64,000 nucleotides of DNA from Chthoniobacterales bacterium (GCA_035941675.1 DASZDT010000004.1:1837-65836); one strand, 5' to 3'. Numbered from the stretch's first letter, positions 2,221 to 19,324 are shown. A program made the numbers and translations. Notes: generated from the sequence alone by a model not told the origin.

Positions 2221-2931
2221 TCATGGATACGACGCTCCTGCCGCGACGAGTTCCGATTCGTGGGCCGGGTTCGCGATGGCTACGACGCGATCCACGAAGA
2301 TGCCGGGCGTGACGATCGACTCGGGGTCCAGCTGGCCCGGCTCAACGATCTCGGCGACTTGGACGATCGTGACCTTGCCCGCCATCGCCATCGGCGGGCC
2401 GAAGTTTCGCGCCGTTTTGTTGTAGAGGATGTTGCCGTGGGTGTCGGCGACCCGCCCCTTGATGAGCGAGAAGTCGGCGCGGAGGCCGTGCTCAAGCAGG
2501 TACTTTCTGCCGCCGAATTCCCGAGATTCCTTGCCTTCCGCCAGCGGCGTTCCCACGGCGGACGGGGTGTAGAACGCCGGGATTCCGGCTCCGCCGGCGC
2601 GGATGCGCTCCGCGAGCGTTCCCTGGGGAACCAATTCCAATTTCGTGCGCCCGCTTCGGTAGAGTTCGGGGAAGACGGTCGAGTTGGCGGTGCGCGGAAA
2701 CGAACAGACGACCTTGGAAACGCGGCCCGCCTTAAGCAGCGCTGCGAGGCCGACCTCGCCGCTGCCGCAGTTGTTGCTGATCATCGTCAGATTCGTGGCG
2801 CCCTGGTCGATCAGCGCGTGGATGAGCTCGACTGGACTGCCCGCTTCGCCGAAACCACCGAACATGATGGTGGCGCCGTCGAAAATGTCCGAGACAGCCT
2901 CGGCCGCACTCGCGACCCGCTTGTCGATCAT
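2221..2931 (-). CDS. 3-oxoacid CoA-transferase, subunit A (ScoA/AtoD type)
   Basis: [43 protein letters not shown] and KGRVADTHGNILYNKTARNF are typical family I CoA-transferase alpha motifs. ATGA overlap with the upstream KamA-like gene. Confidence 0.9.
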   Translation of the reverse strand: MIDKRVASAAEAVSDIFDGATIMFGGFGEAGSPVELIHALIDQGATNLTMISNNCGSGEVGLAALLKAGRVSKVVCSFPRTANSTVFPELYRSGRTKLELVPQGTLAERIRAGGAGIPAFYTPSAVGTPLAEGKESREFGGRKYLLEHGLRADFSLIKGRVADTHGNILYNKTARNFGPPMAMAGKVTIVQVAEIVEPGQLDPESIVTPGIFVDRVVAIANPAHESELVAAGASYP

Positions 2932-4421
2932 GACGCGCCTGCAAGAGCGGCTTGAAGAGCGCCGATACTGGGCGCCTGTCCGGCAGCCGTGGCGTGACCC
3001 GGCGCCTGTCCGGGTTTCGAGACACGTGCGTAGTCATACAAACCGGCCTCGTCGAACAGAACGCGGTCCTCGTAGTCGTCGAACCAAAGCGCCTCGGGGT
3101 TGCGGCCGACGATGCAGACCTTGCCACGGTCGGGGGCGCTGCCGGCGTTCCGAAGAATCTTGAAGATCAAGACGCCATTCTCGCTGCCCGCGAGTCCCGG
3201 TATTCCCTCGTTGGTGACCGCCGCCACTTCGGTCTTGCCTTTGTAATGGGTGATGGAAAGGCGCGCGTGGGTCTCGACGCCCGACAATCCCTTTTGCGAG
3301 GTGTTGAGAATATTCCACGCGCTCTCGATCGGAACGTTGAACTGCTTGTAGGCGATGATGTCGCGCCCGCAGAAGAAGTAGTGGTTATGGCCGCCGGCCC
3401 GCACGAACTCGCGCTGCAGAATGCGGAGAGCGTCCGGGTCATCGTTGATGCCCCTGATGATCGGCGCCTGGTTCTCCACGGTGAGCCAGCCGCGCGAGGC
3501 AAGCCCGCGCATTCCCTCATTCGTCGCGGGGACCCATTGCTTGAAGCCCTGCGCGTCCTCGATGTAGTTTCCTTCCGGATCCTTGGCGAGGAACTCGTCA
3601 GGGTGCTCGAAGTGCAGCATCATATGCAGGCCGACCTGCGGGTAGGTCTCGTGGAACCGATCGAGCATCGACAGGAAGGTGCGGTCGAAGCGCTGGGGAT
3701 AGAATGCCATTTCCTTGGTGCCGATGCGGATCGACTCGACGCCCGCTTCGGCCAGCGCGCCGAGCCAGGCCGCGATCTTCGAATTGTTCAGCACCATCGG
3801 GTCGCCGCCCGACATCAGTATCTCGCGCAGCTTCTCGCGTCCGCTTTCAGGGTGCACGCCGCCGTTCGCCGCCACCTCGGCGTTGTGCTGCTTAATGTAC
3901 GGGATGATCTCGGGGATCAGCGCGAGACCCTTCTTCGCGATGGTGCCATCCTTTCGCCTGATCTCTTTGCGGGCGATCAATTCTTCGCGGTAGCAGAAAC
4001 GGCAATGGGCCGAGCAGGTCGCCACGACATACATGAGTCCCATCTCGTACTTGTGGAGCAGGCCCTCGACGGGGCTGTAGTCCATCTGGTTGCCAGGATC
4101 TTCCGAGCCCGCAAGATCCAGGGTCTCGGCGGGGTCGGCCTTAACGATGCGCTGAATCGCGGCGCTGGTCCTGGCCAGCTCGTAGTAATGGCGCGTGATC
4201 TTCACCGGCATCCGGCTTTCCACGTCACGCTCGGTGCCCTTGAGGACTTGCAGGCGTGTCACCTCGTCCTTGGAGTAGAAGTTGAGCATGTCCTCCGGGG
4301 CCTTCTCGTGGAAGAAGGGGCCGAGCCCACTGATAATTTCCCGCTCATAGCGGGCGTCTTCGACGCTCTCGAGAAACTTCTGCTCGCGTGCGGTGGGGAC
4401 GTAAGGTTGTAGCTGTGTCAT
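2928..4421 (-). CDS. KamA-family radical SAM aminomutase-like protein (lysine 2,3-aminomutase family) with C-terminal extension
   Basis: Radical SAM cluster motif CSAHCRFCYR preceded by GLLHKYEMGLMYVVATCS, then MSGGDPMVL and the IRIGTKE-type region. 497 aa. Confidence 0.85.
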   Translation of the reverse strand: MTQLQPYVPTAREQKFLESVEDARYEREIISGLGPFFHEKAPEDMLNFYSKDEVTRLQVLKGTERDVESRMPVKITRHYYELARTSAAIQRIVKADPAETLDLAGSEDPGNQMDYSPVEGLLHKYEMGLMYVVATCSAHCRFCYREELIARKEIRRKDGTIAKKGLALIPEIIPYIKQHNAEVAANGGVHPESGREKLREILMSGGDPMVLNNSKIAAWLGALAEAGVESIRIGTKEMAFYPQRFDRTFLSMLDRFHETYPQVGLHMMLHFEHPDEFLAKDPEGNYIEDAQGFKQWVPATNEGMRGLASRGWLTVENQAPIIRGINDDPDALRILQREFVRAGGHNHYFFCGRDIIAYKQFNVPIESAWNILNTSQKGLSGVETHARLSITHYKGKTEVAAVTNEGIPGLAGSENGVLIFKILRNAGSAPDRGKVCIVGRNPEALWFDDYEDRVLFDEAGLYDYARVSKPGQAPGHATAAGQAPSIGALQAALAGAS

Positions 4422-11148: not shown

Positions 11149-14100
11149 TCGGACGCGTCTCCCATGCAGGTGTGCTTGTCGTGCCCGTCGCCGTAGATCG
11201 GCTCCAATTCCTTTGCGCGGTGCAGATCGTGCCCGGAAATCTTCGGCGGCTCCTTGTCGTCCTTCTTCTCGCCGTCGCCGTCCTTGCCACCTCCGATTTC
11301 CTTCAGCCGTTCCACCAGCGCCTTCTGGACGAGCGCCTCGCGCTGCGCCGCAAAACTTTTCCGCGCCTCCGCATCCTCGGCGCGATCGAAATACTTCCGG
11401 CCATCGATCCACGTCTGCTGGACGCGCGCGTAATTCGAGAGCGGGTTGCCGGTCCAGATCACGAAGTCCCCGTCCTTCCCGTTTTCCAGCGAACCGGTCT
11501 TCGCCTCGATCCGCAATTGTTTGGCGGGATTGATCGTCACCAGCTTGAGCGCGTCTTCCGGCGAGAGCCCGCCATACTTCATCGATTTCGCCGCTTCCGT
11601 GTTCAAACGCCGCGCGAGATCGGCGCTGTCGGAGTTCACCGAGGTCACCACGTTCTGCCCGTTCATCATGGCGGCGTTGTCCGGGATCGCATCGATCACT
11701 TCGAACTTGTAGCCCCACCAATCGGCAAACGTGGAACCGCCCACGCCGTCTTTCGCCATCACGTCGGCCACCTTGTAGCCCTCCAAAATATGCTGGAGCG
11801 TGCCGACCCGGATCTTGAATTCCCGCGCCACGCCCAGGAACGCCAGGATCTCGTCCTGCCGGTAGGAGTGGCAATGGATCAGCCGCTTGCCGCTCAAAAT
11901 TTCCGAGATCGCTTCCAGCTGAAGATCGCGGCGCACCGGCAAGCCGCCTTTCTTCTTCAGGGCCGCGTCGTATTCCTGCGCGGCCCGGAACCGGTCGCGC
12001 ATGATTTGTTCGACACCCATCCGCGTCTGCGGATAACGCGTTCTGAATTTGTCGCCCCAGTTCGCTTGCTTGACGTTTTCGCCGAGCGCGAACTTCACTC
12101 CCGGCATCGCGTCGGCGAACTTGAGCTCCTCCGCGGACGCGCCCCAGCGAAATTTGATGACCTGATTCTGGCCGCCCATCGGATTGGCGGAACCATGGAG
12201 CACGTTCGCGGTCGTGACGCCGCCGGCCAGCTCCCGATAGAGACCGATATCCGTGGGATCGATCACGTCGCCGATCCGCACTTCGCAGGTCACGGCGTGG
12301 CTCGACTCGTTCACGCCGCGGCTGATTGCGGTGTGCGAGTGGCAATCGATGATGCCCGGCGTGACATGCATTCCCTTGCCGTCGACCACCGTCGCGCCGC
12401 CGGGCGCTTTCAATCCCGGGCCGACCGCCGAGATTTTGCCGCCGGTCACGAGGACGTCAGCGTTCTGGAGCGTGCCTTGCGGTCCGGAAGTCCAAACCGT
12501 CGCGCCTTGAATCAGGACCGCTTTCGGCTGATCGGGTGGCGCCGCGCGACCGAAGGCGCCCGCCGGGTAGGTCTCCGGGAAATCCAGCGGCTTATCGAGC
12601 GGCGATGGTTTGTCGTCCGGCTTTTTCGCGGGCGTGAAAGCAGCCGTGCGTTTCGCGTTCCATCGCACGTTCGTTAGGCCGGGGGCGTCGCCCGTTCCCG
12701 AAATCGTCTCACCGAAAATTACACCGGTTAGCCGGAGCGACCCTTCGCCTTTCTCGAAGAGCTTCGCCGGCGCGATCACGAGGATCGAGTCGTCCTTCAC
12801 CGAGACGGTCGCTTTTTCGCCGCCGACCTTGGCATCGAGTTTCTCGACCTTGCCCTCGATCGTCAGCGGCAAGGTCTTTCCGTCCGCCACCAGTTCCCAC
12901 GTCCCGCGCACGTCACGCTCGCGCGCCTGGTCGGTATCGTAATAGCGGCCGTCGACCCAGGTCGTCAGCACCTTGGCGTCGTCGCCAAAAAGATCGCCGC
13001 TGGCCACGACCAGGTTCGCCATCCGGCCGGCCGCGATCGAGCCGAGCCGGTCAGCGACGCCGAACATTTCCGCCGGCGTAGTGGTGAGAGCCGCGAGCGC
13101 CGCGTCCTTGCTCAAGCCGCGTCGAACGGCCAGGCGCAGCCGGGACCAAAAATCCTTTTCCGGTTTCTCCAGCTTCTCCGTCGTCAACGCGAACGGAATA
13201 CCCGCTTCCGCCAGCCGGGCGGGATTGCTGGGCGCGCGGTCCCAATGCTGAAGCTCGTCGAGCTCAACTTCGATCGCGTTCTCGGGCCGCTCGATTTCCG
13301 GCGGCTTCGGAAAATCGAGCGGCAAAATGATCGCCGGCTTTTTCTCCGCCAACGCCTTGCGGACCCGATATTCGTAACCGTTCCCGAACAGGATCGGTTT
13401 CAATTTGAATTCGTCCGCTATCCGCAGGGCGCGGAGCAGATCGAGTTCGTCTTCCGCCTCGAACACGGCCGGATTCCGCTGCATCTGCTCAGCGAGCGTG
13501 GCCAGGCTCGCGTTCGTTTCCGGGCGCTCGGTCGTCGCGGGATTTTTCCGGTAGGCGTCCTGGGCCGCCTGATACCATGACGCGTCGAGGAAACTCTGCC
13601 GAATCAGCGCGATGCTTCCCATCAACGAATTCGGATAACCCCGGTCGCCGTCGCGCCCGTCGCGATCGAAGTCGAACCCGATGTGTTGCGCGACGACCGG
13701 CGAAACGACCATCGTGTCGACATTCGTTTCCTGCAGGTTGATGAGCGCGCTCGATCCGTGGAAAACGCCGCGAGCCGGAACGACCAGCGCGCTCGCGAAC
13801 CCGAGATCGCGCAGGAGCTTCGTCGCTTTCTTGTCGACGTTAAGATAATCGGCGGCCCGCCGCTCCGGCGTCACGCGCGGGTTCCAGGAGCGCGTACCCT
13901 TGGCGCTTTCGCGCGGCACTTCCTTGGGCTTCGCATTTGGATCGTCCGGATCGATATCGGTCCGCGCCGACTCCGGTTTCAATGTCTCCGGCAAATCCAG
14001 CCGGCTGTAGCCATCGATGAAGCCCGCATAAATCGTTTTGCCGGTGAGATCCCAAACCCGCGCTTCCTCCGGTACCTTCACCTCCGGCCCCACGTCGACG

Positions 14101-14413: not shown

Positions 14414-15217
14414 TTACCGTGGCATCGGGATAGCGTCGTCGGCCCGCTCGATTTTCAGAACCGGATGAATCTCCCACGCGGTCGCTCGCCAGGGGTTGTG
14501 ATAGCGGTTGCGCGCGATGGAGTGAATCGTGACGCCGACATCCTTCGTTTTGTCGTTGTGCTCGTCGTCCCAAAGAAGATAGCCGGTCAGGCGGACCTTC
14601 TGCGCTTTGTGCCCGGTCGATTCGTAAGTGGCATCGCGACGCCGGAAAAAAGCCGCCAGCTCCTGGATTCGAATGCCGTCATGGTAGATGGCGTTTTGCG
14701 TTCGCGGCGTGATTTCGCAAATGATCGGCGTCGGGTCGCCCGGCTGCGGCGGATGATCGAGCGGCTGTTCAAACATCTCGAGATGCCAGTCATGGAAGTC
14801 GAGGCTGCCGCAGATGGTCGACTCCCCCGGGCCTGGATACGCGAGCACAAGATAACCAGTTAACGAAACAAGCGGCGCTTGGAGAATCTCGAGCCGTCGC
14901 TTTTGGGCGGGACTCAGATCTTTTCGGTGTTTGCTTTTGGTTTCTGCATCGAACCGAGCGACGTGTTTCAACAGGCTCTTCATGTCGAACGGTGTCACCG
15001 CAAGTTTGGAAACATCGGCGGCCGACCGGTTCTTCAATCGATTAAGCTCACCATTGTCCGGACTCTTCGCGCTTTTTTCCCCTCGCGTGTCGCAATTCCA
15101 CGTTGTCAGATCGATCTTTTTTAGTTCGCGATCATCGGATATTTGCTCGGCGGCGTTGGCGCAGCGGAACGCGATCAGCGCGAGAGCAACCAGACTTCGG
15201 CGGAGGAAGCGGGTCAT
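14414..15217 (-). CDS. secreted hypothetical protein
   Basis: ATG at 15217 gives the signal peptide MTRFLRRSLVALALIAFRCANA. The rest is protein-like but no family is recognised. Confidence 0.6.
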   Translation of the reverse strand: MTRFLRRSLVALALIAFRCANAAEQISDDRELKKIDLTTWNCDTRGEKSAKSPDNGELNRLKNRSAADVSKLAVTPFDMKSLLKHVARFDAETKSKHRKDLSPAQKRRLEILQAPLVSLTGYLVLAYPGPGESTICGSLDFHDWHLEMFEQPLDHPPQPGDPTPIICEITPRTQNAIYHDGIRIQELAAFFRRRDATYESTGHKAQKVRLTGYLLWDDEHNDKTKDVGVTIHSIARNRYHNPWRATAWEIHPVLKIERADDAIPMPR

Positions 15218-15230
15218 CGGGGCGCCATTC

Positions 15231-15304
15231 GTCACCCCATGTAGTAACCGCCGTTCACATTCAAAACGTGGCCGGTGATGAAGCTCGCCATGTATGTGCG
15301 AGGA
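15231..15304 (-). pseudogene. orphan 3'-terminal fragment of a FabG-like SDR gene (duplicate of 18569-18643)
   Basis: 15231-15291 matches 18569-18629 at 57/61 nt by hand alignment. It encodes ...MASFITGHVLNVNGGYYMG* versus ...MASYITGHVLNVNGGYYMG* of the intact gene. Similarity continues with a 1-nt indel (gcgaggaa) and is then lost. Confidence 0.75.
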
Positions 15305-15340
15305 AAATACCTCAAACAACGTGGATTGGGATAGTCACCG

Positions 15341-15865
15341 TCACCAGTATTCGATCCTCAAGTCGACTGGCGCACCGCGGGCCCTCAGTTCTTTCCCCGC
15401 TTGATCTATGAAACGCATTCCGGCATTTCGATCGCGAGTTACTAAGATCAATCCGTTCTCGGCTGCAATGCTGGCTATTAAAAGGTCACGCTCGTCAATT
15501 CCCAACTCCCGGCCACTGACACGGTCCATTAATTCCTCGGGCAACTTTTCGCGGTGCCCTCTGGTCTGTTTGGTTGCGTGCATTCGCCACAGCTGCGCGC
15601 GCAGATGTGAATAAGGTTCCACTGTATTTGGACCGATTCCTAATGGTTGGGGGAAGCTTTCAAAGCACTTCCGAATTCCACTGCGCTGAAATTCATCTGC
15701 CAGTTCGGATTTAGCCATTCCAAACTCAATTTCGGCGATCGCAATTACCGGCAGCCAAACATGGTCTAGCGCGCGAACGCGTTTTTCGATCTCATCGTGA
15801 TCCGCATGGCGACTGTTTGCCAACACCGAAATCACATTGGTGTCGAGTAGATAACCGTCGCTCAC
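15341..15865 (-). CDS. PIN-domain ribonuclease (VapC-like toxin), 174 aa
   Basis: LLDTNVIS (first Asp), AIAEIEFG (Glu), ERDLLIASIAAENGLILVTRDRN (third and fourth acidic residues). GTG start overlaps the stop of the upstream methyltransferase (GTGA at 15862-15865). Confidence 0.85.
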   Translation of the reverse strand: MSDGYLLDTNVISVLANSRHADHDEIEKRVRALDHVWLPVIAIAEIEFGMAKSELADEFQRSGIRKCFESFPQPLGIGPNTVEPYSHLRAQLWRMHATKQTRGHREKLPEELMDRVSGRELGIDERDLLIASIAAENGLILVTRDRNAGMRFIDQAGKELRARGAPVDLRIEYW

Positions 15866-18414
15866 GCCACATCCTCAAGCACTGCAGCGATGCTCGGCTC
15901 AATGCGATCAGGCAGCGAGTCGACCAGATATGAACCCCTGCATCGCTCGAAATCTGTTGCGATGAATCTCCACAGCGGGATAGTTGGTTTAAAGCTCTCA
16001 GGAAAGTATCCATCGAAGGAGAAGGGAACTCGTCGCGGCGTTCTCGCGTCGTTAAAATAGTCTAAAAGGCGACGTTCTAATCGCGGCGGAAGATTGTAAG
16101 CCCGCAGGATCACGGCATCAATTTGCAGGAGTAAATTTCGCGCAATATCGTTGCCGGCGCGTGCGCCCCACAATTCCAAATCGTTGTGTGGAAGGGATCG
16201 AAGAGACTGCAAGTAGGCATCAATTAACCTGTGAAGAAGGGCATGATCCTCTCTGGACACCTCCGGCACCGGCATTTGGCGCAACGTTGAAACACGTATG
16301 TGCATCCTGCCTTCATGCGTCGCGACATACGCGGCTGCGATCGGGCTATTCAGGAGCGCAACGATCGTAGTTGCGGGATAGCCTAATCGCGGCCACACCG
16401 CGTGAAAATTCTGGGATACGACGAGACCGCTCGGATCAAAAAAGGCCGCTAGACGCCACGGCCCCCGCGACAAACGCACAGCATTTACGATTACCTTTGG
16501 GTGCTCCCAAGACAACCGCCAAGCATTACCGCGTTGGAAAGACTGCTTGCCGCATAAGAAAGTGGTCTCGGGTGTCTCGAATGATCGAAAATCACGCTCT
16601 ACAGAATTAAGGCCACGACGGAAATGATCATTCGGAGATCCGGATAGGTACAGGTGTCGACGGAATGGTTGCTTCCATTCTACGCCGCGGTGGATCCGAG
16701 CAATCTTTTGCAATTGGGCATGTGTGTTAAGCCGATCCCACACTTCGCTCAATTCGGGTATGTTCCATGAGCGAGCGACTTCCGATATTGACCTTTCCGA
16801 TATGTCAGTTCGACTTGCATGATGTTGCTGAACAAAGCGGTGCCTGTCTTCCTCGCGGACCTCTGAAAATTGTAACGAAACCAATTTGGAGCCCCGTCTG
16901 ACCGACTTCGCAATCAAGAGACATGTTTCTAAGTCGACGCCCTGGAAGATGCGATCCGGAAGAGATACGACTTCAATTTCGGAATAGCGTTTCGCCAGTC
17001 GCTCGCGGGCTTCACGGTAACTTAGGCCCGAAACTGCCTGCCTCGGTAAAACGAAACCGACCAACCCCGCAGGAGAGAGGGCGGAAAGGACCTTGCTCAG
17101 GACAGCGACGGGCTTTTTGAGGAGCCCTTGTCTTCGAGCGGCATGCGATGGGCCGAAATCCTGAAAGGGGGGGTTGCAAAGGACGATCTGGGCACTCTGG
17201 AGACTTTTGTCGAAATCGGGCGATCTAAAAATGTCTGCACAATGTAACTTCCAGCCGCTGTGGTTAGGAAAGTCGGCGAGCGTTACGCATAATCGACTCA
17301 CTTCGAGTGCGAATGCATCAATTTCGAACCCGCGCAACATTTTCACAAAATACTTATGCCGCTCCTGTCCCGACATGTTTGGAGATAACAAATCGCGAAG
17401 CCTTTTTAGTGCAGCGACGAGGAAAACGCCGTGCCCGGAGCAGGGTTCGACTACGCGCCTGTCGGCCTCCGGAATATCCTCGAACGGCAACTTGTTGACA
17501 ATATATCTAGCAATGTTTCGAGGCGTGCTGTGAATGCCTAGTTCCGCACGAGCGCCGGCGTCGACGAGCGTGTTCTCGTAGATGTAAGACAGGATATCGA
17601 CAGATAGATTCTGAAAGCTGAATCCATCCCACAGCCGATCAAAGACTGCTTGTTGCGACGCTCTGTCATGTAGTACTGGCGAGTCTTCGCCATAATAATC
17701 AGCAACTCTTTCAAGAATAACGGCAGGCGTTGCGCTATCTAGCGACCGAAAGCCTTGGACTGAGCGGTCATGTAATACTCGTGCGGCCAACATCCTGAAT
17801 ACGAGGCGAAATAAACGCCTCGGATCCGGGGGCAAACCGGTACGGGTCTGATGTGCATTCGTCACATCAACAATTGCCGCAGTTAGTACTTCGTGAAGTT
17901 TTTGGCTAACGATTTGTTCGAGCGCCGGGACTAAATTGAGATCGAGGAACTCTAATTGCGCGGCAGTCGTCGCCCCGGGAATGTTTTTCGCCCGTAAGAT
18001 TGATTGCGGTTTCCAGTCTAGCGCGCTATCGCGAAAAAGTGCGTCGATACGCTCATGGGGAATCTCTTCTCGCACGTGACATGTAGTGCTGGCATCCCTA
18101 CCAATCCGCCAAGGGAGAATGCCATTTGGCTGTACCTCTAGCCCGATCGGTGCACCTAATGCGCGGTATTGGGCGACGCGATCTGCCGTGGCTGGCGTTT
18201 TAGTAGGAAATACCGCAAAACATGCCGAGTCGTACGAGAACGGTGTTTGGCCGAACACCGCGCAGACTCTGCGCTTTGGTGCAAGCGAATCAAACCAGTC
18301 TACAAATTCATAGTCTTCGTCGCGAAGGCCGGCTGAATAGCCAATGTGGTTCAGTCCTCCGAGGACGGCACGGTAACCCTTTTCATGACGGTCGTTAACG
18401 AACGTTGGGATCAT
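15862..18414 (-). CDS. gamma-class N6-adenine DNA methyltransferase (Eco57I/type IIG-like MTase core plus TaqI-like C-terminal specificity region) with unrecognised ~280-aa N-terminal domain
   Basis: Motif order IYENTL...GIHSTPRNIARYIV, VVEPCSGHGVFLVAAL (motif I), IVLCNPPF (motif IV), then a long C-terminal region (NFHAVWP...LLNSPIAAAYV). 850 aa. Confidence 0.85.
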   Translation of the reverse strand: MIPTFVNDRHEKGYRAVLGGLNHIGYSAGLRDEDYEFVDWFDSLAPKRRVCAVFGQTPFSYDSACFAVFPTKTPATADRVAQYRALGAPIGLEVQPNGILPWRIGRDASTTCHVREEIPHERIDALFRDSALDWKPQSILRAKNIPGATTAAQLEFLDLNLVPALEQIVSQKLHEVLTAAIVDVTNAHQTRTGLPPDPRRLFRLVFRMLAARVLHDRSVQGFRSLDSATPAVILERVADYYGEDSPVLHDRASQQAVFDRLWDGFSFQNLSVDILSYIYENTLVDAGARAELGIHSTPRNIARYIVNKLPFEDIPEADRRVVEPCSGHGVFLVAALKRLRDLLSPNMSGQERHKYFVKMLRGFEIDAFALEVSRLCVTLADFPNHSGWKLHCADIFRSPDFDKSLQSAQIVLCNPPFQDFGPSHAARRQGLLKKPVAVLSKVLSALSPAGLVGFVLPRQAVSGLSYREARERLAKRYSEIEVVSLPDRIFQGVDLETCLLIAKSVRRGSKLVSLQFSEVREEDRHRFVQQHHASRTDISERSISEVARSWNIPELSEVWDRLNTHAQLQKIARIHRGVEWKQPFRRHLYLSGSPNDHFRRGLNSVERDFRSFETPETTFLCGKQSFQRGNAWRLSWEHPKVIVNAVRLSRGPWRLAAFFDPSGLVVSQNFHAVWPRLGYPATTIVALLNSPIAAAYVATHEGRMHIRVSTLRQMPVPEVSREDHALLHRLIDAYLQSLRSLPHNDLELWGARAGNDIARNLLLQIDAVILRAYNLPPRLERRLLDYFNDARTPRRVPFSFDGYFPESFKPTIPLWRFIATDFERCRGSYLVDSLPDRIEPSIAAVLEDVA

Positions 18415-18481
18415 TTCGACGTTGTCATGAATGTTCGGATGGTGAGTGGCTGCAATCGCATGACAATTAGCATACGGGGTG

Positions 18482-18496
18482 GGACAAATATTGTCC
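18482..18496. promoter_or_regulatory. perfect 6-3-6 palindrome GGACAA-ATA-TTGTCC about 70 nt upstream of the methyltransferase start (candidate operator)
   Basis: Read directly: gggacaaatattgtcc. A second small palindrome TGCAC-AGGA-GTGCA lies at 18535-18548. Confidence 0.25.
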
Positions 18497-18568
18497 TATC
18501 CCGAAAAAAATTCAGAACCGTCGCATTTTGGCGCTGCACAGGAGTGCAACAATCTAAATAAATCGGCT

Positions 18569-19324
18569 TCACCCCATGTAATAACCACCGTTCACGTTCA
18601 AAACGTGGCCGGTGATGTAGCTCGCCATGGGCGAAGCGAGGAAGAGCGCGGCGTTCACGATTTCATGCACGTCGCCGAGGCGGCCGAGCGGGATCTGCTT
18701 TTTGAAGTTTTCCGTCACTTCGTCGGGCATCCCTTTGCTCATGCCGACGTCGATGAATCCGGGCGCGATCGCGTTCACGGTAATGTTTTGCCGGGCCAGC
18801 TCCCGCGCCGAGACTTTGGTCAGCGCGATGATGGCCGCTTTGCTCGACGAATAATTCGCCTGGCCGAACAATCCCATCTGGCCGCTGACCGACGACAGAT
18901 TGATGACCCGCCCGTCGTTGCGCAGGATCGTTGCCGCCGCCTTGGTGACGTTGAAGGTCCCGGTGACGTTGACGCGGAGGACGCTTTCGAATTCCTCGAC
19001 CGCCATTTTTTTCATCGTCCGGTCGCGGATGATTCCCGAATTGTTGACCAGGACGTCGAGCCCGCCGTGGCGCTCCTGGATCTGCTTCATCATGGCCTCG
19101 ACCTGCGCCGGGTTCGTCACGTCGCACTCAATTACGAGCGGCTCGCGTAACTCCGCCGCAACCTTGGCTGCATCCGTCTTGTTCGTTCCATCCGGATCGG
19201 CCACATAATTCACCACGCACTTCGCCCCGCGCGCTCCAAACGCCTTGATCATTTCCGCCCCGATCCCGCGCGAACTGCCGGTCACGAGAATGATCTTGCC
19301 GCCGAAATCCAAAGGATCACTCAT
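18569..19324 (-). CDS. SDR-family oxidoreductase, 3-oxoacyl-ACP reductase (FabG)-like
   Basis: TGSSRGIG cofactor motif, NNSGI, catalytic YSSSK, C-terminal GHVLNVNGGYYMG. Confidence 0.9.
   Translation of the reverse strand: MSDPLDFGGKIILVTGSSRGIGAEMIKAFGARGAKCVVNYVADPDGTNKTDAAKVAAELREPLVIECDVTNPAQVEAMMKQIQERHGGLDVLVNNSGIIRDRTMKKMAVEEFESVLRVNVTGTFNVTKAAATILRNDGRVINLSSVSGQMGLFGQANYSSSKAAIIALTKVSARELARQNITVNAIAPGFIDVGMSKGMPDEVTENFKKQIPLGRLGDVHEIVNAALFLASPMASYITGHVLNVNGGYYMG

Follow-up and report, generated by a model that had tools for sequence, protein, structure and literature searches.

A two-gene unit encoding a DNA methyltransferase and a PIN-domain nuclease probably reached this Chthoniobacterales genome, of a soil Verrucomicrobium, by horizontal transfer, inserting at the end of a FabG-like gene with a long duplication of its target and spreading by recombination among relatives. 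The window, that is, the whole stretch of DNA analyzed here (64,000 nt; GCA_035941675.1, DASZDT010000004.1:1837-65836), holds this unit between two copies of the gene end, and the features concerned all lie on the minus strand:

14414-15217, minus: secreted-protein gene, native downstream neighbor (tblastn in relatives)
15232-15292, minus: repeat copy B, the orphan fabG 3' end, …MASFITGHVLNVNGGYYMG* (repeat search, gene-end alignment)
15293-15340, minus: cassette trailer (gene-end alignment)
15341-15865, minus: PIN-domain nuclease gene, 174 aa, overlapping the methyltransferase stop by 4 nt (Pfam PIN, PF01850, E=3.6e-11)
15862-18414, minus: type-IIG-like N6-adenine DNA methyltransferase, 850 aa (Pfam N6_Mtase, E=2e-15; AlphaFold2, Foldseek)
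18415-18568, minus: cassette leader, 154 nt, with a promoter-like core (motif comparison)
18569-18629, minus: repeat copy A, the last 61 nt, with the stop, of the intact fabG-like gene (repeat search, gene-end alignment)
18569-19324, minus: FabG-like short-chain dehydrogenase (SDR), 251 aa, intact, the insertion target (ORF list; Pfam adh_short_C2, E=3.5e-67)

The target gene is called "FabG-like" because NCBIfam FabG models score it slightly under their cut-offs, and the secreted-protein gene has no match in Pfam or NCBIfam. Repeat search placed the duplication as a 61-nt direct repeat (15232-15292 versus 18569-18629) with 93% identity (57/61), a start-to-start spacing of 3337 nt and a 22-nt stretch without mismatch, and the two cassette flanks matched each other in blastn-short (E=2.3e-21). 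The first-pass annotation had reported the same 57 identities, which stand, and an upstream start at 15231, which is corrected here to 15232. Copy A directly abuts the cassette leader, and copy B is joined to the native downstream flank, its stop lying 14 nt from the ATG of the next gene, an arrangement also seen at empty sites. Relative to the intact end, the orphan carries one Y-to-F change and three synonymous changes, and in the gene-end alignment its identity to fabG steps sharply at 15292/15293, from about 35% to 93%. The further similarity with a 1-nt indel that had been described beyond the repeat is present as weak similarity upstream of the orphan (TTCCTCGC, 15293-15309). These distal 17 nt of the trailer form a decayed fabG-like stretch, TTTTCCTCGCACATA, common to the cassette of locus L003, and in their upstream parts the orphans of the window and of L003 match each other at 30/44 positions but any fabG at only 16-21/47.

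FabG-like orthologues with 82-92% identity were found in 80 metagenome loci, none of which (0/80) carried the cassette. Empty sites occur in at least five relatives (L075, L076, L077, L114 and L125; fabG at 82-92% protein identity), where the secreted-protein gene starts 0-20 nt past fabG, with a stop/start overlap (GTGA) in three of the five; with L084 counted alongside them, the distance by tblastn is 0-90 nt. The repeat matches the fabG ends of these five at 50-55 of 61 positions. Since fabG directly abuts the secreted-protein gene in these relatives, an order that the first-pass annotation had named as the sign of an empty site, the interval is an insertion, not a deletion relic. A tandem SDR paralogue at 15232-15304, mostly deleted and leaving the methyltransferase-PIN pair as old resident DNA, would explain the existence of the orphan fragment and nothing more, and it is refuted because empty sites exist; that the orphan is closest to fabG alleles of its own clade, that the interval is compositionally foreign, and that the same bracketing recurs at tRNA-Gly, gatB and an oxidoreductase gene all leave this history with practically no chance of being correct. 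A second SDR paralogue at the orphan position was rejected on the same empty sites.

Compositionally, 15293-18568 has a GC content of 0.522 versus 0.608 +/- 0.017 in the other 3.3-kb windows (n=217; z = -5.1, with none lower), and its tetranucleotide distance is the highest among the 3.3-kb windows (z = +4.8), so that the interval described earlier as AT-richer proves, at 52% versus 61% GC, to be the strongest compositional outlier of the window. The insert of 3.28 kb consists of the methyltransferase gene, the PIN gene and the leader, with no other genes; Pfam and NCBIfam return N6_Mtase and PIN only, in agreement with the claim that the interval holds no integrase or transposase, and a repeat search found no terminal inverted repeats at its borders. 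A DNA transposon or insertion sequence was rejected as a candidate, there being no transposase, no border inverted repeats and a variable duplication length (30, 61-101, 108 and 172 nt). Empty sites, foreign composition and the presence of the same cassette beside other fabG alleles uphold the proposal of a discrete, horizontally acquired unit, and we conclude that 15293-18568 is a self-contained, two-gene unit of this kind with its own promoter. The promoter is inferred from the leader, where a palindrome (GGACAATATTTGTCC, 18482-18496) is followed by a TAATT/TACAAT-like box; a simple sigma-70 scan made no call at this core. The palindrome occurs once in the window, with 0 expected by chance, and the motif recurs as TGGACnnnATTTGTCC in L004-L009, 62-78 nt upstream of the methyltransferase ATG. 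Among independent insertions, the leaders have nothing but the promoter core in common, at 125-170 nt upstream of the ATG, the trailers share nothing past the PIN stop, and neither common termini nor conserved attP arms were found beside the repeats.

The methyltransferase-PIN module is conserved, as a pair, across many phyla. Beside other fabG alleles, where the first-pass annotation had suggested searching, the cassette sits at this site, bracketed by a duplication in the same way, in three further independent assemblies (L001/L002 and L003), whose orphans are 55-101 nt long (90-101 nt in L001) with 76-88% identity. Elsewhere, the module is bracketed by a duplicated tRNA-Gly(CCC) 3' end in L006 (30/30, T-arm to CCA), by a duplicated gatB 3' end of about 108-123 nt in L016 (101/108) and in a second genome, L156, and by a duplicated FAD-oxidoreductase 5' end in L027 (154/172). 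The data all come from metagenome assemblies. A flank match of >=35 bits was obtained for 6 of 48 evaluable loci when the flanks came from the same locus, versus 1 of 400 cross-locus control pairs, and the flanking repeat is absent from about 90% of module-family loci. The perfect 30-nt tRNA repeat resembles a classical att site, and duplication edges at a stop, start or CCA are also expected from an integrase-type "replacement end". Its presence between duplicated gene ends at further sites, in other bacteria, leads us to conclude that the gene pair is a unit that moves recurrently and carries no integrase.

Alternatively, a tyrosine or serine recombinase with its gene elsewhere could have integrated the cassette site-specifically, as a cis-mobilisable element that lacks an integrase and brings a new 3' end for the target gene in its attP, the two repeats being attL and attR. 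This would fit targets that are gene termini and a tRNA 3' end, similarity that ends exactly at the stop, start codon or CCA at all four sites, the perfect tRNA-Gly 30-mer and the 22-nt identical stretch in the window repeat. We nevertheless consider it unlikely: at none of the four sites is a recombinase gene present in the unit or in the surrounding 6-10 kb (neighbors in L001, L006, L016 and L027), four unrelated att specificities would have to be assumed for cassettes that are close relatives, and the repeats range from 30 to 172 nt and are described as imperfect throughout (with the tRNA-Gly repeat at 30/30). Furthermore, no common sequence stands beside the repeats, where attP arms would be expected, and relatives of the module are absent from viral contigs, with only three, distant ones on plasmids.

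Evolutionarily, the differences between intact and orphan ends, pooled over four duplications, comprise 32.5 synonymous versus 18.5 non-synonymous changes (pN/pS 0.18, binomial p=6.5e-9). Because these differences are so strongly synonymous, the two repeat copies are different functional alleles of the gene end, an indication that the cassette came in by recombination with a donor whose flank had diverged. The cassette tree, ((window, L003), L001), departs from the fabG-end tree, ((window, L001), L003 with L114/L125), in which the placement of L003 uses just 168 nt of fabG. Two origins had been offered at first for the duplicated end, and recombination with a diverged flank is the better fit while an element carrying a replacement end is the poorer one, since the copy differences are allele-like and the cassette family lacks conserved ends. 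The cassette inserted exactly at the junction of the FabG-like and secreted-protein genes, with a long, imperfect direct duplication that left the target gene whole, and we posit that the unit moves between related Chthoniobacterales by ordinary or homology-facilitated recombination, with the gene-end copies and neighboring genes providing the homology. Donor DNA would have brought the copy that is now joined to the intact gene, the resident fabG end would have been pushed downstream to become the orphan, and the right-hand crossover would correspond to the identity step at 15292/15293. Recombination between relatives alone leaves the first duplication at each new target unexplained, and later allelic replacement of the intact gene could give a synonymous bias without any cassette-borne end.

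Structurally, the methyltransferase comprises an N-terminal alpha/beta domain, a helical linker, a gamma-class methyltransferase domain with NPPF, a target-recognition domain and a conserved C-terminal tail. It is conserved over its full length among homologues (n=683), with motif I (EPCSGHG) and motif IV (NPPF) invariant or nearly so, and its AlphaFold2 model (pLDDT 85) has BpuSI (3s1s) as best Foldseek match, with further matches to CamA, M.BseCI, BrxX/PglX, DrdV and MmeI. The N-terminal domain, modeled at pLDDT 90, has no PDB match at E<=0.001 (its best matches to restriction-endonuclease-fold proteins reach TM 0.45); D39, D62 and E93 are conserved, with no lysine motif and no canonical PD-(D/E)XK. 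Pfam gave weak MmeI_Mtase and TaqI_C matches, and the MmeI_Mtase, Alw26I-type and MADS Mad2 scores are far under the family cut-offs (28.8 versus 720 for NCBIfam MAD2). In PADLOC, the methyltransferase matched generic methyltransferase models and the shared methyltransferase core of mad2 only, the PIN protein matched nothing, and no system-specific model (MADS, BREX, type I/II/IIG restriction-modification) was matched by all components. Of 65 genome loci, 51 have a PIN gene next after that of the methyltransferase, the remaining 14 being mostly contig ends or broken copies, and none of the acidic PIN residues D8, E45, E125, D127 and D145 varies among 54 members of the family. No small antitoxin ORF lies between the two genes or directly upstream of the PIN gene, where the 850-aa methyltransferase gene stands. 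Functionally, the pair is most likely a defence or addiction module of restriction-modification-like or toxin-antitoxin-like type, as predicted from its sequences.

Could the unit insert itself? The PIN protein or the methyltransferase N-terminal domain might make widely staggered breaks, with fill-in repair and later divergence of the duplications, an idea in keeping with the invariant PIN catalytic residues and with the repeated finding of the module, with no other mobility gene, inside long target duplications at sites unrelated to one another; double-strand breakage has also been proposed, in passages of Furuta et al. (PMC2853133), as a property common to units so inserted. We rate this as very unlikely, though, given that strongly synonymous differences are unexpected for neutral decay of an initially identical orphan, that the window orphan jumps abruptly from low to high identity, and that the cassette has no fixed ends. 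In addition, VapC-type PIN domains are usually RNases. A broader version, in which the pair is an autonomous, recombinase-free selfish element, an addiction or defence module whose own nuclease breaks the chromosome and which settles at gene termini with a long duplication, pops out and re-enters relatives via the repeats, seems to us quite unlikely; if true, the PIN nuclease would stand in for the restriction enzyme. To our knowledge, such a "virus-like life cycle" has been proposed for restriction-modification units and never demonstrated.

How small defence or addiction units move without a recombinase is an old, unsolved question from restriction-modification genome comparisons, for which the module is a compact, recurrent natural example: one conserved two-gene family whose members stand at the ends of four unrelated genes, between duplicated stretches of 30-172 nt. 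Because closely related soil bacteria carry either an occupied or an empty allele, and the two repeat copies are allelic, the recombination route can be put to the test. The analysis also brings to notice an uncharacterised, phylum-spanning methyltransferase-PIN system, and members in records without a MAG label (Rhodopirellula sp. SWK7, strain NaphS2 and a Sinorhizobium chiapasense plasmid) could serve experiments if the strains are obtainable.

Compared with known systems, the methyltransferase resembles type IIG/IIL enzymes (BpuSI, MmeI, DrdV) and BREX PglX/BrxX in joining an N-terminal domain, helical linker, gamma-class N6-adenine methyltransferase and target-recognition domain in one polypeptide, but a separate PIN gene is attached here, and, unlike in type IIG/IIL enzymes, the N-terminal domain is without the canonical PD-(D/E)XK motif. 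Like VapBC type II systems, the unit encodes a VapC-like nuclease whose acidic active site is intact and whose gene is translationally coupled to the one upstream, and its promoter holds a palindromic operator-like site, whereas the upstream partner is an 850-aa DNA methyltransferase instead of a small VapB antitoxin, and the PIN protein carries a ~25-residue insertion and scores far below NCBIfam VapC cut-offs. The displacement of resident 3' ends at Rhs and T6SS loci has been attributed to homology-facilitated illegitimate recombination (PMC5361080). In effector-immunity arrays of Rhs, CDI and T6SS loci, as is proposed here, DNA that enters by way of a conserved gene delivers cargo together with a new gene end, and the end already present is moved downstream, where it stays as an orphan; there, however, what is carried is the variable end, a toxin tip, and arrays accumulate, whereas here the terminus of a housekeeping-type gene is duplicated and the cargo consists of two genes unrelated to it. 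A bracketing direct repeat and an intact gene are likewise seen with genomic islands and cis-mobilisable elements in tRNA or protein gene 3' ends, but the present unit has no integrase inside or nearby and lacks conserved attP arms, and within its family both the target and the length of the repeat differ.

Insertion with long target duplication was reportedly the subject of Nobusato et al. in 2000 (Gene 259:99), for restriction-modification units. The methyltransferase-PIN insertion matches this mode, already described for such units. In the passages of Furuta, Abe & Kobayashi 2010 that describe it (PMC2853133), restriction-modification units without mobility genes, and also orphan methyltransferases, lie between imperfect repeats of 30-420 bp, some at gene 3' ends or tRNAs. 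Of the features by which these passages recognise such units, an empty site aligning with the flanks and repeat is found in the five relatives above; the insert (<20 kb without mobility genes) is 3.28 kb; the duplication (>30 bp) is 61 nt, or 90-101 nt in L001; and the modification homologue is a clear methyltransferase, the candidates for a restriction homologue being the partner PIN protein and a putative N-terminal nuclease fold. The likeness extends to a small, methyltransferase-bearing unit without mobility genes, an empty site in relatives, a lower-GC insert and a long (>30 bp), imperfect target repeat that sometimes overlaps a gene 3' end or tRNA. Set against those passages, the present unit differs in that its repeat copies show allele-like (synonymous) differences, a point not found in them, that the partner of the methyltransferase is a PIN nuclease and not a recognised restriction endonuclease, and that one module family occupies four different duplicated gene termini.

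Every gene in this region is encoded on the minus strand, where a methyltransferase gene and a PIN gene, together with their leader and trailer, form a cassette (15293-18568) between the intact 3' end of a FabG-like gene and a spare copy of that end, hereafter the orphan. In the order of transcription, the features are as follows.

19324 to 18569, minus strand, FabG-like SDR gene, first in gene order
between the fabG-like gene and the methyltransferase gene, minus strand, leader of 154 nt
18414 to 15862, minus strand, methyltransferase gene (850 aa)
15865 to 15341, minus strand, PIN gene (174 aa), with a 4-nt overlap with the methyltransferase stop
between the PIN gene and the orphan, minus strand, trailer of 48 nt
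15292 to 15232, minus strand, orphan fabG 3' end
15217 to 14414, minus strand, secreted-protein gene, its ATG 14 nt past the orphan

A repeat finder returned a single long direct repeat, pairing 15232-15292 with 18569-18629 (57/61 identity, spacing 3337 nt), which confirms the bracketing duplication of the fabG end described in the first-pass annotation, except that its upstream coordinates had been shifted by one base. When the cassette's two flanks were compared with each other, they matched at E=2.3e-21; as a control, only 1 of 400 flank pairs drawn from different loci reached 35 bits. Compositionally, the interval is deviant, the first-pass annotation having judged it AT-richer than its flanks, with a GC content between the repeat copies of 0.522 versus 0.608 +/- 0.017 for the remaining window (z -5.1), and the greatest tetranucleotide deviation among all 3.3-kb stretches (z +4.8).

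Searching metagenome contigs with the FabG-like protein yielded 80 orthologous loci (82-92% identity), none of which (0/80) carries a methyltransferase or PIN gene. Five of these (L075, L076, L077, L114, and L125) extend far enough downstream and share a common synteny group (151-aa membrane protein, fabG, secreted protein, amidohydrolase) to be judged for an empty site, and in all five the secreted-protein gene begins 0-20 nt after fabG, so that the empty sites which the first-pass annotation proposed to look for in relatives do exist. Since fabG leads directly into the secreted-protein gene at these loci, the reading of the orphan as a deletion relic, left by a lost tandem SDR paralogue, is refuted. 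At another locus, L084, the secreted-protein gene lies ~90 nt downstream of fabG. The fabG stop overlaps the secreted-protein start as GTGA in three of the five empty-site loci (L075 1589-1600, L125 6753-6765, and L114 2479-2490), an overlap that, as far as sequence can tell, implies translational coupling of the two genes. The window's orphan is a 19-codon mini-ORF with its own ATG, ending 14 nt before the secreted-protein ATG, and could be a means of keeping this coupling after insertion.

A protein from a Chthoniobacterales MAG matches the window's methyltransferase at 100% identity, and the cassette occupies the same place in three other independent assemblies (L001, L002, and L003), with protein identities to the window of 87-89% for the methyltransferase and 93-97% for PIN. 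An orphan fabG end follows the PIN gene in each of them (90-101 nt at 85-88% in L001 and L002, and 33-55 nt at 76-91% in L003). The same cassette with its bracketing duplication thus recurs beside other fabG alleles, and an assembly artefact is ruled out for the window structure, because each of the three assemblies shows it.

Around this site, the secreted-protein gene (window 14414-15217, and in L075, L076, L114, L125, and L001) retains 57-73% protein identity, changing much faster than its neighbours fabG (82-92%) and amidohydrolase (82-88%), and its GC is also lower (0.55-0.59). The gene is missing from L003, where the orphan adjoins an apparent converging NYN-type gene, as annotated in L001, recognized by 3'-end sequence similarity. 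In L001 itself, a HEPN_AbiU2 gene is flanked by the methylmalonyl-CoA mutase gene and an MFS transporter gene, and an NYN-domain gene lies past the secreted-protein gene (defence-type genes at 2832-3434 and 12041-12844); inspection of the window's ORF list showed neither. Genes of defence type may accumulate around the cassette, making its surroundings a small hotspot.

To extend the comparison, the 1.5 kb upstream of the methyltransferase was compared with the 1.5 kb downstream of PIN at every locus, and tight flanking direct repeats emerged at three further unrelated sites. These are a perfect repeat of the last 30 nt of tRNA-Gly(CCC), from T-arm to CCA, in L006, L007, L008, and L011; a repeat of the last ~108 nt of gatB (93.5%) in L016, where a more diverged similarity runs on in the orphan up to a separate stop codon, and whose site is shared by a second genome, L156; and a repeat covering 172 nt from the start of an FAD-dependent oxidoreductase gene (89.5%) in L027, where the orphan 5' fragment lies upstream, overlapping the stop of the native upstream gene, and the intact gene stands downstream of the cassette. 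A 24-nt repeat in L036 was borderline. Same-locus flank matches of at least 35 bits were found in 6 of 48 evaluable loci (window, L001, L003, L006, L016, and L027), corresponding to four independent sites (the window, L001, and L003 being one) versus essentially none in the controls. None of the repeats at L157-L160 was convincing, a 22-nt aldehyde-dehydrogenase-like match in L157 being too weak, and a translated flank comparison for more decayed orphans revealed none beyond the known sites. L157 (848-2386, 5934-6806) and L009 (5099-5785) share a gene set of DeoC, DUF3185, and aldehyde dehydrogenase in different arrangements, with a 290-aa aldehyde dehydrogenase gene after the cassette in L157, which suggests local rearrangement around these two cassettes.

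At every site, one edge of the duplication is a gene terminus (stop, CCA, or start), which leaves the target gene whole; the position of the other edge varies from site to site, as does the length of the repeat. The only sequence that independent insertions share is that of the two genes and the promoter core; their repeat-to-gene distances differ, and no terminal inverted repeats or fixed element ends were found in the cassettes. As the first-pass annotation had noted for the inside of the unit, no recombinase gene was found in it, nor within 6-10 kb, at the four sites. A recombinase acting in trans would account for the tRNA site and for repeat edges at gene termini, but a single cassette family would then call for four specificities, and conserved arms are absent, so we regard this explanation as unlikely.

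Differences between the repeat copies are informative about their history. Pooled over the four protein-coding duplications (window, L001, L016, and L027), intact and orphan copies differ by 32.5 synonymous versus 18.5 non-synonymous changes (pS 0.30, pN 0.055, ratio 0.18), whereas neutral decay of an identical duplicate would give differences at ~3:1 non-synonymous (binomial p 6.5e-9); transition bias, which lies outside the model, cannot explain a five-fold effect. The synonymous bias therefore indicates that the repeat copies are two alleles, each evolved within a working gene. The window's orphan also shows an abrupt identity step at 15292/15293: downstream of the step it is 93% identical to fabG, and the stretch before it matches fabG alleles at 16-21/47 positions but the corresponding stretch of L003 at 30/44. 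Among the cassettes, the window pairs with L003, as ((window, L003), L001), with methyltransferase nucleotide identities of 83.2% versus 82.0% and 79.9% and PIN identities of 92% versus 85-86%. Among the fabG ends it pairs with L001 instead, as ((window, L001), L003 with L114/L125), L114 and L125 being empty-site genomes and L003 being represented by 168 nt only. Neither copy in the window could be named as native, because the two are equally distant from the empty-site alleles (to L075, 55/61 for each).

These data fit a model of spread into related recipients, in which a donor with fabG, repeat 1, cassette, repeat 2, and neighbour gene would undergo homologous recombination with a related recipient bearing an empty site. 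On the left, the crossover would fall within fabG; on the right, it would fall within the donor's orphan while this is aligned to the fabG end of the recipient, leaving the donor allele at the end of the intact gene and a hybrid orphan whose distal 61 nt would be the recipient's resident end, with the hybrid junction as the identity step of the window. Of the two origins weighed in the first-pass annotation, recombination with a diverged flank fits both the allele-like synonymous differences and the identity step; the finding is real and that interpretation is supported. The recombination model does not cover the rise of the duplication at a new target. Insertion catalysed by the unit's own nucleases appears more doubtful still than a trans-acting recombinase, since the identity step, the missing fixed ends, and the bias toward synonymous changes all argue against such an origin for the repeats seen today, though founding events may stay compatible with it.

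For many members of the family, the whole contig is roughly cassette-sized (3.2-3.5 kb), and the L008 contig has a 23-nt terminal repeat. Circular forms were considered and rejected, since the L008 and L156 contigs merely break within the flanking repeats, an assembly effect; the short contigs may be an indirect sign of many more repeat-bracketed or population-polymorphic copies. A phage or plasmid vehicle was likewise rejected, with no cassette relatives in IMG/VR and only three plasmid relatives, distant (33-35%) and on rhizobial plasmids. RefSeq labels one plasmid copy 'N-6 DNA methylase' and 'PIN domain-containing protein'. On Sinorhizobium chiapasense plasmid pSchITTGS70c (L161, 6402-8406), two transposase genes, one of the IS1182 family, follow the pair, a possible movement route unlike the window's.

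Functionally, the 850-aa protein (683 full-length homologues at E<=1e-10 among the scored candidates) is conserved end to end, and the conserved positions include the gamma-class N6-adenine methyltransferase motifs I (EPCSGHG) and IV (NPPF). Its AlphaFold2 model (pLDDT 85) best matches the type IIG enzyme BpuSI, followed by CamA, M.BseCI, BrxX/PglX, DrdV, and MmeI, and from these fold matches the modelled architecture is an N-terminal domain, helical linker, methyltransferase, and target-recognition domain. Folded separately, the N-terminal 150 residues (pLDDT 90, alpha-beta-beta-beta-alpha-beta-beta) gave no significant PDB match in a fold search and were therefore not accepted as a proven nuclease; their nearest resemblances (TM ~0.45) are restriction-endonuclease-fold proteins, including the BpuSI N-terminus, with D39, D62, and E93 near-invariant and the (D/E)xK lysine absent. 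The PIN protein is predicted to be an active nuclease, because D8, E45, E125, D127, and D145 are invariant in 54 members. In PADLOC, the methyltransferase drew only generic methyltransferase matches, and the PIN protein is not covered by any model.

Among 65 genome loci found by methyltransferase profile (Verrucomicrobiota, Planctomycetota, Desulfobacterota, Nitrospinota, Chloroflexota, Zixibacteria, and others), 51 have the PIN gene directly after the methyltransferase; the remaining 14 comprise 6 at contig ends, 5 fragmented, and the 3 most distant members. Cassette GC is below flank GC in nearly all loci. The leader holds a promoter-like core and the palindrome GGACAATATTTGTCC (window 18482-18496), common to the nearest subfamily, with the equivalent TGGACnnnATTTGTCC 62-78 nt upstream of the ATG in relatives L004-L009; a sigma-70 scan did not call this promoter. 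A mostly Desulfobacterota-labelled subfamily (L039-L051, L055, L066, and L068-L070) has a third conserved ORF before the pair, ending …GKYFSAITRQQYFRFDTEQIGAEIIxLQ…, and may represent a three-gene system. Methyltransferase copies in L054 (halves 2 kb apart), L060, L067, L072, L073, and L074 are fragmented or frameshifted, have no PIN match, and look like decaying copies of the module. A literature search found no paper on a methyltransferase-PIN system or pair. We infer a putative restriction-modification-like or toxin-antitoxin-like defence or addiction module, in which DNA marking or sensing would fall to the large methyltransferase, which would also restrain the PIN nuclease.

[quoted passage not shown] The founding duplication at a new target belongs to the phenomenon of 'insertion with long target duplication', which has been described for orphan methyltransferases as well as for type I-IV restriction-modification units, with often imperfect repeats of 30 to ~420 bp, some at gene 3' ends or tRNAs, inserts of lower GC without mobility genes, and a hypothesised virus-like life cycle (PMC2853133). 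The event type is thus already known; what is new, and deserves recording, is the type-IIG-like methyltransferase and PIN cargo, recurring at several duplicated gene termini.
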